This document shows, one piece after another, positions 10,345 to 62,278 of a stretch of 64,000 bases of DNA (position 1 is the stretch's first letter; each line of letters begins with the position of its first letter). Under the pieces are notes generated by a model. That model was not told the origin of the DNA and made no database searches. It saw only the letters and a program-made list of their open reading frames with translations. The position numbers were made by a program, and so were the translations under genes. Location of the stretch: NCBI GenBank assembly GCA_030295235.1, contig AP026123.1, positions 1,054,001 through 1,118,000 of the forward strand, in the 5' to 3' direction. Source of the stretch: Fistulifera solaris (lineage: Eukaryota).

Positions 10345-13300
10345 ATGGAAGCAGGTGCATTTGTGTGGGCACGCGACAATGAGGGCGACGAAGCCTGGAT
10401 CTTGTGCGAAGTAGTCAAGAAAACAGACACCGAATTGCGATTGAAACAGAAAGACAAGCCAAGCAATGAGTTCTCTCGTGGAATTGAAACTCTTAATGAG
10501 GAGACAGGCGAACGAAAATTTGAGGGAGTCGAATTAGCCAACACTCCGTTGTCGCAAGAAGAGAAAGAGGAAGGGCGAGATAATGATTTGATTGCCTTGC
10601 CTCACTTGCATGAGCCTGCTATACTACACGCTCTGTCAGATCGCTTTTTTCGCGGTAAAATTTACACGTGGACGGGACCGGTTTTGATTGCCGTCAATCC
10701 ATTTCAACGTCTTCCTCTCTACACGGACGACATTCTCGAAGTCTACCGACGAGATGGTCTGTTGAAAGCGCAGGGCATGCAAAGTGGCGATGAGCTCGAG
10801 CCCCATGTCTTCGCCATTGCAGATCACTCCTATCGTCAGATGATGGGAGAAAAACGACGATCCCAGGCCATTCTTATTTCGGGCGAATCAGGAGCTGGGA
10901 AAACCGAGTCGACCAAGATTGTCATGCTGTACTTGACCACCCTGGGATCTGGTAGCGGAGAAGTCGTAAAAGAAAACGCGAGTGATGAAAGTGGAGAGCT
11001 TTCTGTCATGCAGAGGGTTTTACAGTCCAACCCTGTACTAGAAGCCTTTGGAAATGCTAGAACCCTTCGAAACGACAACTCATCGCGTTTCGGGAAGTTC
11101 ATTGAGCTTGGTTTCTCCCGAGCTGGTCATCTTCTTGGTGCTAAAGTTCAGACCTATCTTTTAGAAAAGGTCCGACTTGCTTTTCATGCTGCGGGTGAAC
11201 GAAACTATCATATCTTTTATCAGCTCTTGCGCGGCTGCTCTGAAGAAGACCATATGAAGTACGAGTTTCACGACGGTGTTACAGGAGGCTTAGATCTTCC
11301 CAACTATTTTCACTACACTGGACAAGGTGGTGCACCGCACTTGCGAGAATTCACGGATGAGTCTGGGTTTGAATATACACTCAAAGCCATGCGAAGGTTG
11401 GGATGGTCGCAAGAAACGATTGATGCCGTTTTGTCGATCATTGCTGGCCTTTTACACCTTGGTCAAATATCGTTTGAGTCCGTGGAGGTTGATGGAGTAG
11501 AGACAGCAAAAGTCGCGTCAGAGAAGACACTCGAATATGCAGCTCGTCTCCTCGGCGTGGATATTGATAAACTCCGCGCTGCTTTGACGGAACGCATCAT
11601 TCTGGCACGTGACCAAGAAATCAAGACTCTTCTGACTCCTGATAAAGCCATGGATGCCCGCGATGCATTGGCGAAAACCATTTACGGAGCACTCTTCCTA
11701 TGGGTAGTAGATCAGGTAAACCAGTCGATTTGCTGGGCCGACGACAACGAAGTGCGTTCTTCGTGCGGTGTCCTAGATATCTTTGGTTTCGAATGTTTCG
11801 CTGTGAACTCTTTCGAACAATTGTGTATCAATTACACAAACGAAGCTCTTCAACAGCAGTTCAACCAGTTTATTTTCAAACTAGAGCAAGCGGAATACGA
11901 AGCAGAAAACATCGAATGGGCTTTCATTGAATTCCCTGACAACCAAGATTGCCTCGACACCATTCAAGCCCCCAAAGTTGGTATCTTGTCCATGCTGGAC
12001 GATGAGTGCAAGCTACCAAAAGGAAGTGATCGCAACTGGGCGAAGCGCATGTATGAACAATATCTGCCGGAGAAAAATCAAGTAGTCTCGGCAAATACCA
12101 GATTCCACGCTACTAAGGTTCAGCAGGGTAAATCACTCTTTGCGTCCGACATTTTGCAGGTCTTGTCACATACACTGTGGAGACGAACTTCATGGAGAAG
12201 AATAAAGATGAAATTCCGATTACTGCTCAAACATTGCTGGAAACGGCGCCAAGTCAGCTCATCAAAGATACCTACGAAATCCAAAAGCGAGAGAATCTAG
12301 GTCGCGCCGATGCCGGCAGTAATGCCCGTGCAGCCAAACCCAAAACAGTTGGCCAGCAGTTCAAGGAGCAATTGACGGCCTTAATTGAAAGCGTGCAGAA
12401 AACGGACCCGCACTACATTCGTTGTATCAAACCGAACGACGCGGCTAAGCCTCTTTTGATGACTCGTAAGCGTACAACTGAACAACTTCGTTACGGAGGT
12501 GTCTTGGAAGCGGTCAGAGTTGCTCGAGCCGGCTACCCAGTCCGAATGGTCCATTCTGGTTTCTTCCAGCGCTATCGGATGTTGCTTCCGACGACACCGG
12601 ACGATGTTCTTCCTTGGAGCATGGATGGTCATGTGGCTCAAGATCTGTGTGTGAAATTAGTTCAGATTGTGTTGGAAGAAGGAAAGAAACACAGAGAGGC
12701 TACCAAAGATGGTCCGCTTGATCCCCATGAGCCTGGAATCACTCGATCGGAGAAGATCAGGCGTATGCAAAATCAGCCTATACCCATGGCATTTCCAATA
12801 ACTGATGTGCAACTAGGAAAGACCAAGGTTTTCATGCGCAAGCATCCTCACGATTGCATGGAGGCACATCGCGTTTTTCACCAGCATGCTAGTGCTACTG
12901 TGATGCAAAGTTGGGCTAGAGGCTTGGCGCAACAACGGAAGTACCTCATCGTTGGAGATGCTGCTCTTACCATTCAGCGTTGTTACCGTGGATACAAGGG
13001 CCGTGAAAGGTATGTGACATGGTGCTTTATTGTGTCAATTGGCATTTTATGTCCTTGTATTCTTACCCATGTCTATCTTCAGATGGTGGAACCTACGGAA
13101 AGCAGATGCTGGAATGCTACTCACCAAGGTATTCCGTATGCTTATTGCATGGCGAAAGTTCAATCGGGTCAGAAAAGGAACTGTTCGCTTGCAAGCTCAC
13201 ATCCGTGGTCGCACCGTTCGTCGTGAGCAAGCTAGTATCGAAGTTCAACGATACTATCGCCGTTTCATTGCTTTCAAGCACTACCATATGCTCAAGTCGG

Positions 13301-36959: not shown

Positions 36960-38536
36960 ATGTCGGCTGCGCTGTCACTTCCTCCGATTATCAGCGATAG
37001 ACGAAAACGTCTCCGAATTATTTTTTGGGTATTTTTGATCTGCACCTCCTGCAAAGTGCTTTTGTTTCCCAGCTATCGATCGACGGACTTTGATGTTCAT
37101 CGTCATTGGAAGGCGGTCACACGGCATTTACCTGTCGGGGAGTGGTACTGGGATGATCAATACGTTGATACGCGGCACACTCTGGATTATCCACCCGGCT
37201 TTGCTTGGCTCGAGTACGCCTGGACGAATAACTACGTAGTGTCGGCTTTACTGAAACATGGCTGGGTCGATGAAGATTGCTTTGCATTGTTGTCTGACTC
37301 AAGGGATGGACTACTGCAACCTGTAACTAATTCGTGTATCGCATTTATGCGCTCGACCGTCATTGTCGGTGACATGATTTTCTGGGTCGGTGCGTATGCG
37401 GTGGCGCATGTTGTGGAGTCGACGTTTTCATGGCCAACTTTTCTAGGGTTGGTACTCTATCCAGGTCTCTTGTGGTTAGATCATGTGCACTTTCAGTACA
37501 ATGCCCTCATGATTGGCGTTTGGCTCTTGTCGATTGCTGCTTTGTTGCGAGCGAATATAACCGATCGTGAGCACATCGCTTCATATTCACTGCTGGGGGC
37601 GGCATTTCTCTATTCGTTGCTTTCAACAATGAAGCATTTGTACTTGATGTTCGCACCATGGTATACAATCTATTTGCTTCGAAGATATTGTCACAATCCT
37701 GGAAAGGGTCCCTCTTTTGTATTTTCATTTCCAAAATTCATCATCTTGGGGTCAATGACTGTGACAACTCTTTCGATACCTTTGATCCCAATGACCACTT
37801 TATCGGTGCATCCTGTGAAAAAATGATGCAACAATTACATCTTCGTCTCTTCCCTTTCGGTAGAGGTCTTGTTCATGACTACTGGGCGGGCAATCTTTGG
37901 GCTTTCTACGCAGCTGCCTCTAGAATAGTTCAACTGCCGGAAGTAACACCTAAACAGACAGCCATACTGCTGCTGCTTTGTCAGTCGCCTAGCTATTGGT
38001 ATTGCTGGAAAGCCGCTGCAACACGCGACAATTCTCTTCTGCTGCTCTCCATGTCCCTGTGCGGGGCCGCATCTTTCTTTGTGTCCTACCATGTCCACGA
38101 GAAAGCCATTTTGAACGTTTTGGTACCCCTAACTTTGTGGGGCGTGCAAAAATTCGATCGATTTGATTTTTGGTGGGAGTGTACCGCTTGGGGGACCATG
38201 GGTCTCGTTCCGCTATTGTATGAACCGCGCGAGCTATTACTCAAGGGCATCACATTCACCTGCTATCTTTGTGCCTTCTATGGATATCACAAGACGCATC
38301 ATCAGCCAGTGCCCTTTTATACAAGGTACAGAAAAATGATGATGTATGTTCCATATCGGTTTCATGGCTTCTTACTGGCAGCGGTCTGGATAATGGTCGA
38401 TCTGATACCCATTCGAGCATTTGGTCGATTCGAATTTGCACCGCTCGCACTGACAAGTCTATTCTGTGCCTTTGGTCTCACTATCGCCTTTATTCGTTTA
38501 TTGTACTTTATCGTTACTGATAAGGTTATTTTATGA
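36960..38536 (+). CDS. ALG8: Dolichyl-P-glucose alpha-1,3-glucosyltransferase (ALG6/ALG8 family); frameshift in A-run near 37820
   Basis: YRSTDFDVHRHW, TLDYPP, DHVHFQYN, RLFPFGRGLVHDYWAGNLW, HVHEKAIL. Confidence 0.9.
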
Positions 38537-54992: not shown

Positions 54993-55856
54993 TTTGGTTG
55001 ACTTTCCCTGTTTGGTACGATATCACTGAAACGCAAAGCTGCTTTTGCTCTAGCTTCACGAAGCCGATGTCATTTAAGATAATGATGTCAGGGTTTGCCT
55101 CCCAATAGATTTACTTATTCACCTTGCAGCGAACCTGAAAGCCGTCAAAAGACGAAGTTCAACGTCCAAAACCGCGCTGGTACTCCGGTACCGGTACCGG
55201 TAGTGAGAAGAGCAGATGATGACAGACGAAAACAAAAACGTGAAGCATCCCCATCCCTATCCCAAGGTTCTACTGTACTGGTTATCTTCTTACCGGTAAG
55301 TAACTGGTAAGAAGTGGTGACGGTTGGCGTTCGTCCCACTACCAGTGCTGTACAGTTCTTACTATACTGTCATTTTCAAATTTCTCCGCCTACCCCGCGC
55401 TACACAATCTACGATGTACTATGTGCCGAGAGCTGGTAGATATATAGAGATCCGTTTTACTTTGTATTTGACTGTAGAGTTTTATTGTAGATTATTCTTT
55501 TAAATAGTTTGTTAGTATCGTATTTAAAATAGGTCTTTACCGGACATTGGACGGAGTTGCTTGTTCAATTGGCACAACGGAAAATTACTTAAAATGAGCT
55601 TCTCTAAATAACCTTACCAAATTTTCGATACGGTTTTAAATCCAAGATTCTACTTACAAATTTAGCCACGTGGTTGCATCGGATCGATTTTTTGCTCTCT
55701 TTTTAGGTCTCTTCAGACTTCAGAGTCATTGTCATTGATCTCTCGTGGTTCGAGGTTGTCTCGCAATACAATTTGCTAAAGGTATGTTCATGTTTCCCTT
55801 CTTGGTGTCATCAGCTTAGCAATTTTTTGCTTACACTCGATTGCTTCTACCTTTAG

Positions 55857-56921
55857 ATGAAGTACACAGCCCTCAAAACCGCTGCTCTTTCGCTGGTCGT
55901 CTGCGCCATCATCGGAGGATCCCTCCATGCAGCTGGAAAGTTTCACACCGCCCCGGACAGCCTCGCTAATGAAGCTTCTTTCGTTGAGCGTGACTTGAGC
56001 CGTGTTGCCGATCGCGTTCGTCACAATCGCCACAACCGTCACAATCGTCATGACCGCGATCACGGACACGATGATGAAGAGCCCGTTGTTAGCTCCGGAA
56101 AGGGAAAGAAGAGCGGCAAGGGAAAGCGAAGCCTCGAGGAAGAGGAACGTGACTTGAGTCGTGTTGCCGATCGCGTTCGTCACAATCGCCACAACCGTCA
56201 CAATCGTCATGATCGTGATCACGGACACGATGATGAAGAGCCCGTTGTTAGCTCCGGAAAGGGAAAGAAGAGCGGCAAGGGAAAGCGAAGCCTCGAGGAA
56301 GAGGAACGTGACTTGAGTCGTGTTGCCGATCGCGTTCGTCACAATCGCCACAACCGTCACAATCGTCATGATCGTGATCACGGACACGACGACGAAGAGC
56401 CCGTTGTTAGCTCCGGAAAGGGAAAGAAGAGCGGCAAGGGAAAGCGAAGCCTCGAAGAAAAGGATCGTGATTTGAGCCGTGTTGCCGATCGCGTTCGTCA
56501 CAATCGCCACAACCGTCACAATCGTCATGATCGTGATCACGGACACGACGATGAAGAGCCCGTTGTGAGCTCCGGAAAGGGAAAGAAGAGCGGCAAGGGA
56601 AAGCGAAGCCTCGAAGAACAGGATCGTGATTTGAGCCGTGTTGCCGATCGCGTTCGTCACAATCGCCACAACCGTCACAATCGTCATGATCGTGGTCACG
56701 GACACGATGACGAGGAGCCCGTTGTGAGCTCCGGAAAGGGAAAGAAGAGCGGCAAGGGAAAGCGAAGCCTCGAAGAACAGGATCGTGATTTGAGCCGTGT
56801 TGCCGATCGCGTTCGTCACAATCGACACAATCGTCATGACCGCGATCACGGACACGACGACGAAGAGCCCGTTGTTAGCTCCGGAAAGGGAAAGAAGAGC
56901 GGCAAGGGCAAAAGAGACTAG
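55857..56921 (+). CDS. Secreted repeat polyprotein 1 (silaffin-like RXL/KXXK precursor), 6 units of 53 aa (159 bp)
   Basis: Signal peptide MKYTALKTAALSLVVCAIIGGSLHA; unit RDL-SRVADRVR(HNR)3HDRDHGHDDEEPVVSSGKGKKSGKGK-RSL-EEEE. Confidence 0.85.
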   Translation: MKYTALKTAALSLVVCAIIGGSLHAAGKFHTAPDSLANEASFVERDLSRVADRVRHNRHNRHNRHDRDHGHDDEEPVVSSGKGKKSGKGKRSLEEEERDLSRVADRVRHNRHNRHNRHDRDHGHDDEEPVVSSGKGKKSGKGKRSLEEEERDLSRVADRVRHNRHNRHNRHDRDHGHDDEEPVVSSGKGKKSGKGKRSLEEKDRDLSRVADRVRHNRHNRHNRHDRDHGHDDEEPVVSSGKGKKSGKGKRSLEEQDRDLSRVADRVRHNRHNRHNRHDRGHGHDDEEPVVSSGKGKKSGKGKRSLEEQDRDLSRVADRVRHNRHNRHDRDHGHDDEEPVVSSGKGKKSGKGKRD

Positions 56922-57564
56922 TGTTATATCTGTGGCGCGTTTGCATTAGGCACTATGAATAGATAACTATTCATAATGATACATTCTGATTTGATGTTCT
57001 TATTTTTGGCGCCATTGAAAACATTCATAGATGGTTATATTGAGTCTTGTTGAAATAGAGATTGCTCGAACTACCAGGTAGATAAATCGGAGTATTTGGA
57101 CCAGAATCTGCCTGTCGTATTATTGCTTGTTGTTGATGTTAAGGACGTATATACGTCCTTAGTTGATGTAAGACCGCAAAAATTGATTTTTGGTTGTTTT
57201 AGTTGGTCTCTAGTAAACTTAACACACGTCTTACTCTTTAAGTCTAATGGCTCCACTGCTCCCGGATAGAAGGGGCTCCCTAGCTAGGGAGTCCGGAGTT
57301 CGTCAAACCATCACCTAGCACCTAGCCGTATTTTTTCCAGCCATCACAATCACGCGTCCAGATCGAGGGTCAAATAGGTCAACGTCAAATTGCATGTCAT
57401 CGGCAAACAAGTCAGTCATCAGCCGTCAGTCAATCGTCATTCAGCATTTCCGCTTTCATGCCGCTTTTTTTGTTTTTGTTTTGGTTTCTTGTGTTCGCGA
57501 ACCGCGAACTCGTAGGTTCTAGGTTCTAGGTCTCTAGTCTCTAGACTCTAGAGGGTCTAGCTAG

Positions 57565-57840
57565 TATAGTTCGACACACTCTAAAATACTCCGTAACAAA
57601 TACTCGAGTAACGAATATCGATATTTGTGTTATAATAGCGTATTATATTAGGACCATTTTCGGCAATATCGAAATTTATCGATATTCGTACGCCTGACAG
57701 ACGGATTTGAGGCTTTTTACGGTAAAATTAATGTAATTTGCGGACGAAAACATACGGTTGCGAGTATTAATATCGGTTATTATATCGTATTATACGATAT
57801 TGATATTCGTTAGAATATCGATATTATTTGTCGAACTATA
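57565..57840. mobile_element. Small hAT-like MITE
   Basis: Perfect inverted ends TATAGTTCGACA/TGTCGAACTATA flanked on both sides by CTAGCTAG (8 bp); AT-rich interior with repeated ATATCG. Confidence 0.7.
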
Positions 57841-58535
57841 CTAGCTAGTAGCTAGTGTCTAGTCTACTGTACAGCCTAACTGTACACAACTACACAACAC
57901 ACAACTACCAGTACTACTACTTCAACTTTCAGCCCAGAGAAGATTGAAGGTGACCAGTGACCACAGTCAATCGACATTCGGCACTCGGCACTCTAGGTTT
58001 TCGAGTAGAGTTGTACGTCATAGTCATAGTCACGGGTCACGGTCATGCGTCATGCGTCATGCATCATCAACATCCTCTCGGAATTCAGAAACAGAAACCG
58101 AATCTTGAATCAGTCTTACACTAAAACGCAGTGTGTCTGAATTCTGAATAAAATTGGGGTAGACTGCGACAAATTGAGTGGAGTATTAACATTCTAACGG
58201 AAATTTATGCATGTGGCAACATAATTGTTCATCGTGTGTGTCGTGTTTTGAAAGTCAATTGGGAATTTTTACACAATATTGGCAGGTTTGCTGCCTAACG
58301 GTTCGAATTATTGGCGTATCGATGATTCGTGCACATTTTGCTGTTCAACACAATCTTCTCGTTTGCAATCGTTTGCTCACAATTCACAATTTTTCGATCA
58401 GATACGAAGAAGGTCTATCACCGCAACTTTCTCATTCCATTGAAAGAATCGGAGGTAGGTAATCGAATCAGTGCTAAATGTTCATGGGATATCTTTCCTA
58501 ACAATGCAATGTCCTCTTTTCTACTTATATGAAAG

Positions 58536-60012
58536 ATGAAATACATTGCTACAAAAACTGCTGTTGGGTCGCTTGTGCTGCTGGCTATCATTGGTGGATC
58601 TATCCGCGCAAGTAACAGGTTCAGTTTGTCTTCACCACAAAAAAGTAAGCGATAAGTCAGGTCGTACACTTAGCCGCCTTGGAAGTCGCTTTCACAATCG
58701 TCATCACGGACACCACGATGAAGAGCCGGAGGTTAGTTCGGGCAAGGGCAAGAAGAGCGGAAAGGCCGGAAAGGGAAAGCGCAGTCTTGAGGAAGAGGAC
58801 CGCGATCTAGGCCGCCTGAAGGACTTTATGCACCGCGACCATGGTGACCACGGCGATCACGGACACCACGACGAAGAGCCGGAGGTCAGTTCGGGCAAGG
58901 GCAAGAAGAGCGGAAAGGCCGGAAAGGGAAAGCGCAGTCTTGAGGAAGAGGACCGCGATCTAGGCCGTCTCAAGGACTTTATGCACCGCGACCATGGTGA
59001 CCACGGCGATCACGGACACCACGACGAAGAGCCGGAGGTCAGCTCGGGCAAGGGCAAGAAGAGCGGAAAGGCCGGAAAGGGAAAGCGCAGTCTTGAGGAA
59101 GAGGACCGCGATCTAGGCCGTCTGAAGGACTTTATGCACAGCGACCATGGTGACCACGGCGATCACGGACACCACGACGAAGAGCCGGAGGTCAGTTCGG
59201 GCAAGGGCAAGAAGAGCGGAAAGGCCGGAAAGGGAAAGCGCAGTCTTGAGGAAGAGGACCGCGATCTAGGCCGTCTCAAGGACTTTATGCACCGCGACCA
59301 TGGTGACCACGGCGATCACGGACACCACGACGAAGAGCCGGAGGTCAGCTCGGGCAAGGGCAAGAAGAGCGGAAAGGCCGGAAAGGGAAAGCGCAGTCTT
59401 GAGGAAGAGGACCGCGATCTAGGCCGTCTGAAGGACTTTATGCACCGCGACCATGGTGACCACGGCGATCACGGACACCACGACGAAGAGCCGGAGGTCA
59501 GTTCGGGCAAGGGCAAGAAGAGCGGAAAGGCCGGAAAGGGAAAGCGCAGTCTTGAGGAAGAGGACCGCGATCTAGGCCGTCTCAAGGACTTTATGCACCG
59601 CGACCATGGTGACCACGGCGATCACGGACACCACGATGAGGAGCCGGAGGTCAGTTCGGGCAAGGGCAAGAAGAGCGGAAAGGCCGGAAAGGGAAAGCGC
59701 AGTCTTGAGGAAGAGGACCGCGATCTAGGCCGTCTGAAGGACTTTATGCACCGCGACCATGGTGACCACGGCGATCACGGACACCACGATGAGGAGCCGG
59801 AGGTTAGCTCGGGCAAGGGCAAGAAGAGCGGAAAGGCCGGAAAGGGAAAGCGCAGTCTTGAGGAAGAGGACCGCGATCTAGGCCGTCTGAAGGACTTTAT
59901 GCACCGCGACCATGGTGACCACGGCGATCACGGACACCACGACGAAGAGCCGGAGGTCAGTTCGGGCAAGGGCAAGAAGAGCGGAAAGGCTGGAAAGGGC
60001 AAAAGAGACTAA
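58536..60012 (+). CDS. Secreted repeat polyprotein 2 (paralog), 1 variant unit plus 8 units of 51 aa (153 bp); frameshift in A-run near 58640
   Basis: ATG 58536 gives MKYIATKTAVGSLVLLAIIGGSIRA, homologous to gene 1; unit RDL-GRLKDFMHRDHGDHGDHGHHDEEPEVSSGKGKKSGKAGKGK-RSL-EEED. Confidence 0.85.
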
Positions 60013-60628: not shown

Positions 60629-62278
60629 ATGGCACTCGCTTCGAAGCGCAACAATGCTTCAAGCATGGAGAGAATCGTAGGACTGTCTTTGCTGACATTG
60701 CTCGGTCTTTATTGCATGCTGACTGTCTTTGCGTATTACAAAGTATCACAATCGGACCATGGTTTACCTCTAGTGCAATCTACTATTGTAACTGCCGCTT
60801 CCGCAAACGAAGTGCCTTATCAACGGCAAATGGTTGCGGATACGGATAAAATTTCCAGCATCAGCGAACTGCAGAATGCTTTTCCGATATACGTCGGCAA
60901 GGACGTGGAAACGATCATTCATCCCGGAGTACAAGTATTGTCACCCACCGCCATCACAAAGTGGCCCGACGATCTCCCGAAAAATATGTCGGTACCGCAG
61001 TTTTTTGACGATTCTCATGGTCACTTGTACGGTGGGTCTATTCGCGAATTCTTGGGGAATAATGGCGAAAAACTCATCACACCGGAACAAGCCGCAAAGA
61101 TAGGCAGTAAAATTACTGTCAGAGGTAAAGAAGTGGAAACGATCTATTGTTCCGTGGCTTCATATCGTGATCCGGAATGCTCAGGGACTGTGGCGGATGT
61201 TTTTGAACGAGCGGAATACCCGGAACGAATTCGTGTTGCCATTTTGGACCAGCGAGCCGAAGGTGACCCAGTATGCGGCGCTGCCGATTGCGACGCCGAC
61301 CCGAATCAGACACTATGCAAGTATGCCCATCTGATCGAACACACGTCCTTGGACGCTCGTCTCTCGTGCGGTCCGGTATTTGCTCGTCATTTGGCTCACC
61401 GTCACTATCGAGGGGAATATTTCGCTATGCAGATCGACTCACATGTACGCTTCATTGAACACTGGGACAGCAAGATTGTCGGATTTTGGCATTCTGCGAA
61501 CAACGAAATGGCTGTTCTCACTACGTATCTCTCTGATATAAATGGCTCGATCGACCCGATTACACACGAATCCCTGCACAAAACTCGCCCCATCATGTGC
61601 GCATCCGATTACGAAGGCAATGGAGAATACAGACATTTGCGACACGGCCAACAGCCTGAAGGGATTCCTATGATCAAAGGAGAACCGACTTTAGAGCCTT
61701 TCTGGGCGGCTGGGTTTTCATTTTCTCGCGGTCATTTTGTCATCCAAGTCCCTTACGATATGTATTTGCCCATGGTATTTCAAGGCGAAGAGATCAGCAT
61801 CGGGCTGCGTGGATTTACTTACGGATACGATTATTACACCCCTGAGGAAGGTGTTTGCTTCCATATGTACGCCATCAAAGAAAATGAAGCGAAGAGGAAG
61901 AAAGTTCCTCTGTTCTGGGAAAATAGTTCAATGTACACCGGAGTCGGCATGAAAGCGATGCGTCGATTAAACACAATAATTGGGATGGAGAACTACCCAC
62001 GAGATCAATGGCAGACTGACGAAGAAGAGAAGTACGGTCTGGGAAAAGTACGGACCACGCAGAAATTCTTCGACGTGTTTGGCATTCATCCCGAGAAGCA
62101 CACGGTTGAGCAACACTTATGTCGATTTGTGGGCCAGCCAATGATGAAGGAATTGAAACCGCATTTACGTTCAGATCGCATGGGTATCGACTACAATTCT
62201 GTCACGTATCGCTACGTGGACACCGGTTCAGTCAACAACAAACACATTCCAGTAGGGGTGAAGAAGGCTGTGGCGTAG
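60629..62278 (+). CDS. GT60-family (Gnt1-like) polypeptide/hydroxyproline N-acetylglucosaminyltransferase, type II membrane protein
   Basis: N-terminal TM helix; SVASYRDPEC, GPVFARH, QIDSHVRF, FWAAGFSFSRG, VFQGEE. Confidence 0.85.
   Translation: MALASKRNNASSMERIVGLSLLTLLGLYCMLTVFAYYKVSQSDHGLPLVQSTIVTAASANEVPYQRQMVADTDKISSISELQNAFPIYVGKDVETIIHPGVQVLSPTAITKWPDDLPKNMSVPQFFDDSHGHLYGGSIREFLGNNGEKLITPEQAAKIGSKITVRGKEVETIYCSVASYRDPECSGTVADVFERAEYPERIRVAILDQRAEGDPVCGAADCDADPNQTLCKYAHLIEHTSLDARLSCGPVFARHLAHRHYRGEYFAMQIDSHVRFIEHWDSKIVGFWHSANNEMAVLTTYLSDINGSIDPITHESLHKTRPIMCASDYEGNGEYRHLRHGQQPEGIPMIKGEPTLEPFWAAGFSFSRGHFVIQVPYDMYLPMVFQGEEISIGLRGFTYGYDYYTPEEGVCFHMYAIKENEAKRKKVPLFWENSSMYTGVGMKAMRRLNTIIGMENYPRDQWQTDEEEKYGLGKVRTTQKFFDVFGIHPEKHTVEQHLCRFVGQPMMKELKPHLRSDRMGIDYNSVTYRYVDTGSVNNKHIPVGVKKAVA

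Follow-up and report, generated by a model that had tools for sequence, protein, structure and literature searches.

The 64,000-nucleotide stretch of Fistulifera solaris DNA analysed here (contig AP026123.1, positions 1,054,001 to 1,118,000 of the forward strand; hereafter, the window) contains a tandem pair of plus-strand genes, located 1.6 kb apart, that are both real and expressed. The two paralogs, referred to as gene 1 and gene 2, encode repetitive precursors with predicted signal peptides. Judged from the letters, the pair appears to share the complete processing layout of silaffin polyproteins, although it fails three published screens for such proteins. The most likely role of the encoded peptides is that of silaffin-type components of the silica-forming matrix, a tentative reading drawn from layout, motifs and host only, to which we assign a probability of roughly 0.45.

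Organization of the precursors

The repeat units of both genes follow the same order. A His block is followed by an acidic DEEP hinge and by an SSGKGKKSGK(AGK)GK tail, and the unit is closed by RSL, an acidic or polar four-residue spacer and RDL. Within the His block, histidine recurs at every third position, in the form (HNR)n-HDRDHGH in gene 1 and HRDHGDHGDHGHH in gene 2. The hinge reads D(D/H)DEEP(V/E)V in the units of both genes. The spacers of gene 1 are EEEE (2), EEKD (1) and EEQD (2), and those of gene 2 are all EEED. Histidine accounts for 10.5-11.6% of the residues of the two proteins and adjoins aspartate. The overall lysine content is 9.6% in gene 1 and 13.8% in gene 2, and the tails feature 5-6 lysines within 9-12 residues. 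Overlapping K..K tetrapeptides, which are candidate sites for the modification of lysine, occur twice per unit in gene 1 (12 in total) and three times per unit in gene 2 (27 in total); the SS pair ahead of the tail is a candidate site for the modification of serine.

Sites at which the precursors may be cut are equally regular. Arg-X-Leu (RXL) sites number 11 in gene 1 and 17 in gene 2, with RSL and RDL present after every internal unit. A KR dipeptide precedes every spacer and is repeated at the C-terminus, which gives 6 sites in gene 1 and 9 in gene 2. All 13 full inter-unit junctions, 5 in gene 1 and 8 in gene 2, have kept two RXL sites and one KR.

Both leaders have a basic N-terminal end and a 15-residue hydrophobic core followed by small residues. 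In gene 1, lysines are located at positions 2 and 7, the core spans residues 8-22 (mean Kyte-Doolittle value of 1.99), and no further hydrophobic stretch is found beyond residue 30, where the best 15-residue window scores -0.15 on the same scale. Within the first 25 residues, 15 positions are invariant across gene 1, gene 2 and a database fragment described below. Tandem Repeats Finder assigned to the gene 1 array a period of 159 nt, 5.8 copies, 95% matches and a score of 1595, and to the gene 2 array a period of 153 nt, 8.5 copies, 97% matches and a score of 2482.

A first-pass annotation, made from the sequence without database searches, had described two paralogs with homologous leaders and with 6 and 9 repeats. 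Open reading frames (ORFs), translations and Tandem Repeats Finder agree with this description, and the translations likewise bear out the unit anatomy and the GKGKRD-stop end that it had attributed to both proteins. The peptide sizes that it had proposed are also right, as products of 43 and 41 residues are predicted after loss of RSL. Coordinates are collected in Table 1.

Conservation between the paralogs

The two genes have diverged unevenly along the unit. The His blocks of the paralogs agree at only ~8 of 25 aligned positions, the spacing of three between histidines being kept. The segment running from DEEP to RDL spans 28 codons when unit consensuses are compared and the extra GKA of gene 2 is omitted; 12 of these codons are identical, 15 differ synonymously and 1 differs non-synonymously. 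The hinge, the tail, KR, both RXL sites and the spacer have thus stayed constant while silent sites drifted, and the tail and the spacer are under purifying selection. Moreover, the final codons (GGC AAA AGA GAC stop) are common to both genes and differ from those of the internal units, which argues that the ...KRD end is old and conserved, and not the result of a random truncation. No other copy of the leader or unit motifs is found within the 64-kb window.

Within each gene, variable codon columns are also mostly synonymous. Nine are synonymous and 3 non-synonymous among the five full units compared in gene 1, and 6 are synonymous and 1 non-synonymous among the seven full units compared in gene 2. 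The wobble positions are common to one antisense frame as well, in which synonymous columns prevail to a similar extent (9:2 and 5:2), so that within-gene synonymous counts cannot choose the strand. The plus strand is assigned because of the intron orientation described below, the homologous ATG codons and leaders, and the lack of a long antisense ORF over gene 2, the ORF list containing none of at least 60 residues over the gene 2 repeats. A minus-strand ORF located at 55788-56837, encoding a hydrophobic repeat of 349 residues, was rejected as an artefact, as it is open only by virtue of the in-phase repeat and has no counterpart in gene 2.

Both genes are expressed

Contigs of four public runs, i.e., the DNA runs X1 and X2, the RNA-like run X3 and the metatranscriptome X7, were aligned to the region. 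A 301-nt contig of X3, with a depth of 100.5 and 71 letters on its shorter side, joins position 58454 to position 58536 with GT..AG borders. This spliced plus-strand contig indicates that gene 2 is transcribed and that an intron in its 5' untranslated region (5'-UTR) ends exactly at the ATG. In both genes, contigs of X3 are found over repeats and 3' ends, with depths ranging from 29 to 1246. In the intergenic interval 57041-58381, which X1 and X2 cover evenly, the depth of X3 is 0; this is the pattern of cover that a complementary DNA library would give. Two error-free contigs of X7, 195 and 172 nt long, map to the 3' parts of the two genes. The first-pass annotation had made its proposal depend on transcription, which is found, together with splicing, for gene 2.

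By analogy with gene 2, a 5'-UTR intron is also predicted in gene 1. The donor GGTA(T/G)GT and the acceptor AG/ATGAA align between the upstream regions of the two genes, and the depth of X3 at 55700-55997 is 0.

Contigs of X1, X2 and X3 (56124-56877, ~56910) carry an in-frame 32-letter insert, SSESGKGKGKG, ahead of the final tail. This variant reaches a depth of 655 in X3, and loose contig ends continue with similar Ser/Gly/Lys codons. The data suggest a further expressed copy (homoeolog or paralog), chimeras among repeat contigs being possible.

The reading frame of gene 2

In the window as written, the leader frame of gene 2 (ATG at 58536) hits a stop at 58653, yielding a 39-residue leader ORF. 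The repeats are encoded in the next frame, which is open from 58540 to 60012, and a run of six A residues (A6) lies in the overlap of the two frames. One base, placed at either 58637 or 58639, is absent at this run in all five covering contigs, which are derived from three runs. Two contigs come from X1 (10.4 and 6.2 of a depth of 16.6), two from X2 (17.4 and 18 of 35.4) and one from X3 (100.5 of 100.5), and the one-base loss accounts for all of the depth. With five A's, the leader reads into the repeat frame, and gene 2 acquires a head that ends in RTL and is approximately as long as that of gene 1, which measures 47 residues when the translation is split after each R(D/T)L. As the frame is restored in five of five contigs, the break does not denote a pseudogene; the A6 run is a homopolymer-length error of the window or a strain difference, and it falsely splits the gene 2 ORF.

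Two of the five contigs differ further, by 9 and 14 letters over ~120-155 nt, and represent a diverged second copy. This copy has the same length and is therefore likewise in frame. Passages of two reports call the genome of F. solaris allodiploid (PMC13276009, PMC5935921), so that a second copy of gene 2 is expected if the host is this species. A GT..AG intron of either 16 nt (58645-58660) or 49 nt (58612-58660) was considered as the cause of the frame break and rejected, as the contigs simply carry one A fewer.

Two additional features of gene 2 were observed. One contig of X2 lacks 9 bases (3 codons) at 59983, in the last unit, and the X1 contig is complete; the difference is a variation in the length of the lysine tail between copies or strains. 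Upstream, an 83-residue ORF (58211-58462) overlaps the 5'-UTR exon and, after splicing, is out of frame with the ATG. It is possibly an upstream ORF, or is simply not transcribed.

Table 1 Positions of the two peptide genes, their parts and two neighbouring features within the window (aa, residues)
Feature	Position	Strand	Basis or remark
Gene 1 5'-UTR intron, 75 nt, predicted	55782..55856	+	GT at 55782, AG at 55855-55856, abuts ATG
Gene 1 coding sequence, 354 aa + stop	55857..56921	+	ORF list and translation
Gene 1 predicted signal peptide, ~residues 1-25	55857..55931	+	Cleavage site estimated by eye
Gene 1 pro-region, 22 aa, RDL at end ("RXL domain")	55932..55997	+	Translation
Gene 1 repeat array, 6 units	55998..56918	+	Translation, Tandem Repeats Finder
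Gene 1 53-aa units (n = 5)	Starts 55998, 56157, 56316, 56475, 56634	+	
Gene 1 last unit, 42 aa, GKGKRD-stop end	Start 56793	+	
Intergenic element, 292 bp, between the paralogs	57557..57848		Perfect 20-nt terminal inverted repeats (57557-57576, 57829-57848)
Gene 2 5'-UTR exon, portion present in the RNA contig	58382..58454	+	X3 contig
Gene 2 5'-UTR intron, 81 nt, GT..AG, abuts ATG	58455..58535	+	Spliced X3 contig
Gene 2	ATG 58536, stop codon 60010-60012	+	ORF list, translation
Gene 2 start codon and predicted signal peptide, ~residues 1-25	58536..58610	+	Core mean Kyte-Doolittle value 1.93
A6 run breaking the gene 2 frame in the window	58639..58644	+	Public contigs carry one A fewer
Gene 2 remaining pro-region, repeat frame, RTL end	58645..58671	+	Translation
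Gene 2 first unit, shortened, 46 aa	58672..58809	+	His block HNRHHGHH, gene 1-like
Gene 2 units 2-9	58810..60012	+	Translation, Tandem Repeats Finder
Gene 2 51-aa units (n = 7)	Starts 58810, 58963, 59116, 59269, 59422, 59575, 59728	+	
Gene 2 last unit, 43 aa, GKGKRD-stop end	Start 59881	+	
Glycosyltransferase (PF11397), N-terminal hydrophobic anchor; next gene downstream	60629-62278		Pfam

Relatives of the peptide family

A HMMER search of 1.84 billion protein representatives (50% clustering) matched two fragments and nothing else. The first (P0001, 43 residues) is identical to the end of gene 1. The second (P0002, 73 residues), encoded on a 47.7-kb NCBI contig, features a homologous leader and a pro-region ending in RRL, after which a His/Asp block begins and an acidic hinge follows; at least one more member of the family therefore exists. 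A word-indexed protein search gave 0 matches among 8000 scored candidates of similar length, and only P0001 and P0002 at shorter lengths. Nothing scored above threshold in Pfam. DUF4599 (PF15371) reached 27.9 bits for gene 2, below the gathering cut-off of 34, and was rejected as a low-complexity chance match, as no stretch of gene 2 passes alone and gene 1 gives nothing. A sequence search of the PDB returned 0 matches at E values up to 1, and the best score in the ESM Atlas (0.77) belongs to an unrelated fungal cluster and is meaningless. A full-length match to a characterised family, which would have undone the proposal of the first-pass annotation, was thus found neither in Pfam, the PDB and the Atlas nor by HMMER and the word-indexed search.

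Among metagenome contigs, the leader pattern retrieved 310 stretches and the full-length pattern 547, none of which passed tblastn. This null result is probably due to low-complexity masking and is no evidence of absence; masking probably limits the protein, HMMER and metagenome searches for homologues alike. In the literature, peptide strings gave one irrelevant match. No description of His-rich blocks in diatom wall proteins was found in the literature covered, most subscription journals being outside its scope, and the word "histidine" does not occur in the main texts of PMC5501833 and 10.1101/2021.09.18.460806. As far as sequences can tell, the peptide family appears to have no described homologues, the frustule-associated G7408 of F. 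solaris being outside the comparison. The first-pass annotation had not recognised His-rich cores of this kind from described silaffins; beyond diatoms, glassin of sponges and Siliplant1 of sorghum, discussed below, provide precedents.

Comparison with silaffin-type criteria

Few silica-forming peptides of diatoms have been characterised; all come from two species and lack sequence similarity to one another (10.1101/2021.09.18.460806). The search for new silica peptides consequently depends on composition screens. A leader followed by ~30 residues ending in RXL has been called typical of diatom biosilica proteins (PMC5525289). Such a pro-region is present in gene 1 (22 residues to RDL), in gene 2 (~20 residues to RTL) and in P0002 (ending in RRL). 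RXL also closes the individual internal repeats of both genes, as reported for biosilica precursors (PMC4557024). According to a looser rule for silica targeting, two K..K should be found within 10 residues (10.1101/2021.09.18.460806), as is the case in both proteins. Likewise, all units contain the looser pattern of 5 lysines in 12-14 residues (PMC9650480), although a pair of these lysines is directly adjoining.

Other observations weigh against a role in silica formation. The strict pentalysine motif K..K..K.{1,2}K..K (10.1101/2021.09.18.460806) has 0 matches in either protein, the last position being occupied by arginine. Repeated K[SG][SG]K motifs spaced 1-6 residues apart (PMC5501833) also have 0 matches, as each unit contains one KSGK. 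The Scheffel screen, as quoted in PMC3478156, asks for a signal peptide together with minimum contents of 18% Ser and 10% Lys per 100 residues; the best 100-residue windows contain 10 Ser in gene 1 and 12 Ser in gene 2, and the composition screen is failed. The family is nearly absent elsewhere, so that its function is without comparative support, and nothing in the data analysed here ties the genes to silica, silicon supply or the cell wall. KR is conserved as well as RXL, and would suit a kexin-type protease of any eukaryote. Secreted His- and Lys-rich peptides serve elsewhere in metal binding, adhesion or antimicrobial action. Finally, the label of X3 as RNA is a guess taken from an index, and its use here relies on the spliced contig and on the absent intergenic cover. 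The silaffin-like reading advanced in the first-pass annotation is thus upheld as to the leader, the RXL domain, the RXL sites and the K..K tails; the proteins fail three published screens, which speaks against a simple silaffin label. "Silaffin" is, in any case, a biochemical label.

Proposed processing and function

From these features we infer secretion, cleavage, modification and a role in silica. The polyprotein precursors encoded by the tandemly duplicated genes would enter the endoplasmic reticulum co-translationally. The leader would be removed first, followed by the short pro-region ending in RXL. The chain would then be cut after RSL and RDL (or after KR) following every unit, and the C-terminal R-S-L (R-D on the last unit) would be trimmed, so that all copies would end in the lysine tail. 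Gene 1 may release 6 copies of an Arg/His-rich 43-mer, and gene 2 may release 8 copies of a His/Asp-rich 41-mer along with one shorter first copy, so that its 9 copies would measure roughly 38-41 residues. Acidic heptapeptide spacers with a charge of about -4 (calculated net charges range from -3.5 to -4.5) would be released as by-products. Each peptide would be a block polyampholyte composed of a His block, an acidic DEEP hinge and a Ser/Gly/Lys tail, in which the tail may bind or precipitate silica and the His block may act as a pH, and possibly metal, switch. In silaffins and cingulins, tails of the K..K type are modified at their lysines and direct proteins into silica. Between pH 8 and pH 5, the calculated net charge of the gene 1 peptide increases from +4.5 to +11.1, and that of the gene 2 peptide from +0.5 to +7.2. 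The peptides could thus be turned on by their His block inside an acidic compartment, and the silica deposition vesicle is one.

A more far-reaching version of the same reading, which we consider doubtful, is that the pair represents a diatom class of two-part silica peptides missed by silaffin screens, in which the two paralogs act as complementary partners. A glassin-like His block would be fused to a silaffin-like lysine tail, and would be neutral at the pH of sea or pond and polycationic in the acidic silica deposition vesicle. Cationic Arg/His peptides and near-neutral His/Asp peptides might co-assemble or phase-separate with the spacers and template silica. If this were true, sponges, grasses and diatoms would have converged on a His/Asp-plus-Lys design. 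The histidine switch, so far represented by sponge glassin and sorghum Slp1 (Siliplant1), would enter the silica chemistry of diatoms, and short, genetically encoded, pH-switchable silica peptides could be of practical use. More generally, if the peptides are associated with silica, published silaffin screens are too narrow. As the host is transformable (PMC4712521) and, according to a second report, editable (PMC13276009), the silica idea is directly testable.

It is unlikely, although several properties of the peptides would fit, that they are secreted metal-binding or adhesive (mucilage) peptides and not part of silica. The His/Asp and His/Arg blocks might chelate Zn, Cu, Ni or Fe, or might cause coacervation in response to pH or metals within the raphe adhesive or the organic casing, with the tail adhering to surfaces. 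A histidine content of 10.5-11.6%, with histidine at every third position next to aspartate, and a strongly pH-dependent charge are consistent with this function, as is the nature of the host, a benthic raphid pennate diatom. Histidine-rich proteins of mussel byssus, worm jaws and squid beak act by metal binding or coacervation. However, an RXL pro-domain, an RXL site in each unit and a K..K tail form a combination reported for biosilica proteins, and Pfam revealed no domain of the adhesion type. Should the peptides be adhesive or metal-binding after all, they would still constitute an unusual multi-copy secreted peptide system for a diatom.

Still less probable is that the precursors remain largely uncut and serve, like cingulins, as silica- or wall-associated matrix proteins, i.e., as a disordered polyampholyte scaffold in which only the RXL site after the leader is fully cut. 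Cingulins, in the parts of two reports considered, are repetitive proteins with alternating K..K regions that belong to an insoluble matrix (PMC4557024, PMC9650480). In an AlphaFold model, the spacer, RDL and the Arg/His block form one helix (residues 93-120 etc.) with a predicted local distance difference test (pLDDT) value of ~70-80, which would be compatible with an uncut chain. The model was obtained from a single sequence and is weak evidence, as the tail is unstructured (pLDDT <50), the overall pLDDT is 55.6 and the predicted template modelling score is 0.21. In contrast, the retention of two RXL sites and KR at 13 of 13 junctions, with 1 non-synonymous difference in 28 codons between the paralogs, speaks for cleavage, and near-identical units present in 6 and 9 copies suit the dosage of a released peptide, as in Sil1p.

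We consider it very improbable that the genes encode precursors of cationic His-rich antimicrobial peptides, released at KR by a kexin-type protease and neutralised by the acidic spacers. Multi-copy antimicrobial or pheromone precursors of such design exist in plants, insects and fungi. The presence of KR before every spacer and at the C-terminus, and calculated charges that are net positive for the peptides and -3.5 to -4.5 for the spacers, would be expected of them. However, the gene 2 peptide is near-neutral at pH 8 (+0.5) and lacks an amphipathic hydrophobic face, the leader and RXL pro-domain are indicative of the wall pathway, and we know of no multi-copy antimicrobial precursor system in diatoms. 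Lastly, the notion that there is no functional gene pair, either because gene 2 is a frame-shifted pseudogene or because the antisense strand is coding, draws on the frame break in the window, on the open 349-residue antisense ORF over gene 1 and on the similar synonymous excess of the antisense frame, and is scarcely credible given that five of five contigs restore the frame, that the plus-strand GT..AG intron ends at the ATG, that no antisense ORF of at least 60 residues lies over gene 2 and that the plus-strand leaders are homologous.

Surroundings of the gene pair

The next gene downstream encodes a product whose best database match, with 98% identity across 100% of its length, is "hypothetical protein FisN_5Lh460 [Fistulifera solaris]". 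Its next matches are at most 67% identical, and the named ones belong to other diatoms, namely Mayamaea, Amphora, Epithemia, Nitzschia and Cylindrotheca. These matches assign the window to F. solaris or to a very near relative, a raphid pennate diatom. In the sources, the product is named Skp1-hydroxyproline N-acetylglucosamine (GlcNAc)-transferase, and its identity across diatoms is 50-67%. Since conservation in diatoms applies to this GlcNAc-transferase-like gene but not to the peptide genes, their neighbourhood is probably a coincidence. The peptide units do each contain one conserved proline, in DEEP. The upstream neighbour, located on the opposite strand, encodes a PAM68-type photosynthesis protein (Pfam). 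No obvious partner gene for the peptide genes is found nearby, the window otherwise containing ordinary eukaryotic and plastid-related genes.

The element located between the paralogs looks like a multi-copy miniature transposon. The depth of the DNA runs over the element is 76-143, compared with ~12-19 in the flanks (4-8x), and several variant contigs were observed. Elsewhere in the window, a myosin head is split into overlapping ORFs in different frames (10345-12300 and 12192-13226), as is an ALG6/ALG8 glycosyltransferase (36960-37826 and 37658-38536). These splits may reflect short introns or further single-base length errors. An ORF spanning positions 2-2452, open at the start of the window, encodes an ATP-sulfurylase (PUA-like domain) fused to an inorganic pyrophosphatase, a fusion typical of stramenopiles.

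Comparison with known systems

Among known proteins, Sil1p of Cylindrotheca fusiformis resembles the two precursors in layout. In the portion of the account considered, the Sil1p precursor consists of a signal peptide, an acidic part and the basic units R1-R7, each of which has lost its C-terminal RRIL/RRNL in the mature silaffins (PMC4557024). RXL is also found at repeat ends in frustulins, cingulins and silacidins and has been proposed as a general processing signal; K..K clusters, in turn, have been proposed as recognition sites of lysine-modifying enzymes (PMC4557024, in the same portion). Like the F. solaris genes, Sil1p, as there described, combines a signal peptide and an RXL pro-region with tandem Ser/Gly/Lys units followed by R-x-L, and yields several peptide copies per gene. 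In contrast, its units measure 19-33 residues and, in that description, lack a His block, an acidic hinge and any second RXL accompanied by an acidic spacer. Sil1p is set beside the two genes by description; HMMER retrieved only the two fragments and detected no sequence relation.

The cingulins and other proteins with K..K or lysine-enriched regions of Thalassiosira pseudonana have Ser/Gly/Lys stretches such as KSGKSGSGKSGK (PMC9650480), which the tails of the two precursors resemble, and share with the F. solaris proteins a signal peptide, RXL sites and repetitive, disordered, alternating blocks (PMC9650480, PMC5501833). In these proteins, however, the alternating blocks are rich in Trp/Tyr and not in His, and no multi-copy peptide release is known.

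Two silica-associated proteins from outside the diatoms recall the order or composition of the blocks. Glassin, a protein of the glass sponge Euplectella, consists of more than 30% His plus Asp, and its His/Asp parts drive silica formation, according to the portion of the report considered (PMC11733937). Its zwitterionic His and Asp domain is of the same composition type as the gene 2 block HRDHGDHGDHGHHD. Glassin differs in being an animal protein, and neither a K..K tail nor an RXL polyprotein layout nor any homology is mentioned in that portion (PMC11733937). Siliplant1, a secreted protein of sorghum silica cells, has 7 units in which His/Asp directly precedes a Lys-rich domain; in the part of the report considered, RXL ends some of the repeats, and the Lys-rich peptide precipitates silica in vitro (10.1101/518332). 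Unlike the diatom precursors, Siliplant1, as described there, is a Pro-rich (20%) plant protein with longer units and a Pro/Thr/Tyr domain, and the resemblance is convergent at most. Both glassin and Siliplant1 are likened to the F. solaris proteins by composition and block order only, and HMMER found no match that could be either of them.

Precursors of the yeast alpha-factor type, which are processed by kexin, also feature tandem peptide copies, dibasic KR sites and a short acidic spacer. They differ in kingdom, in peptides and in purpose, and in F. solaris each spacer carries two RXL sites of the wall type.

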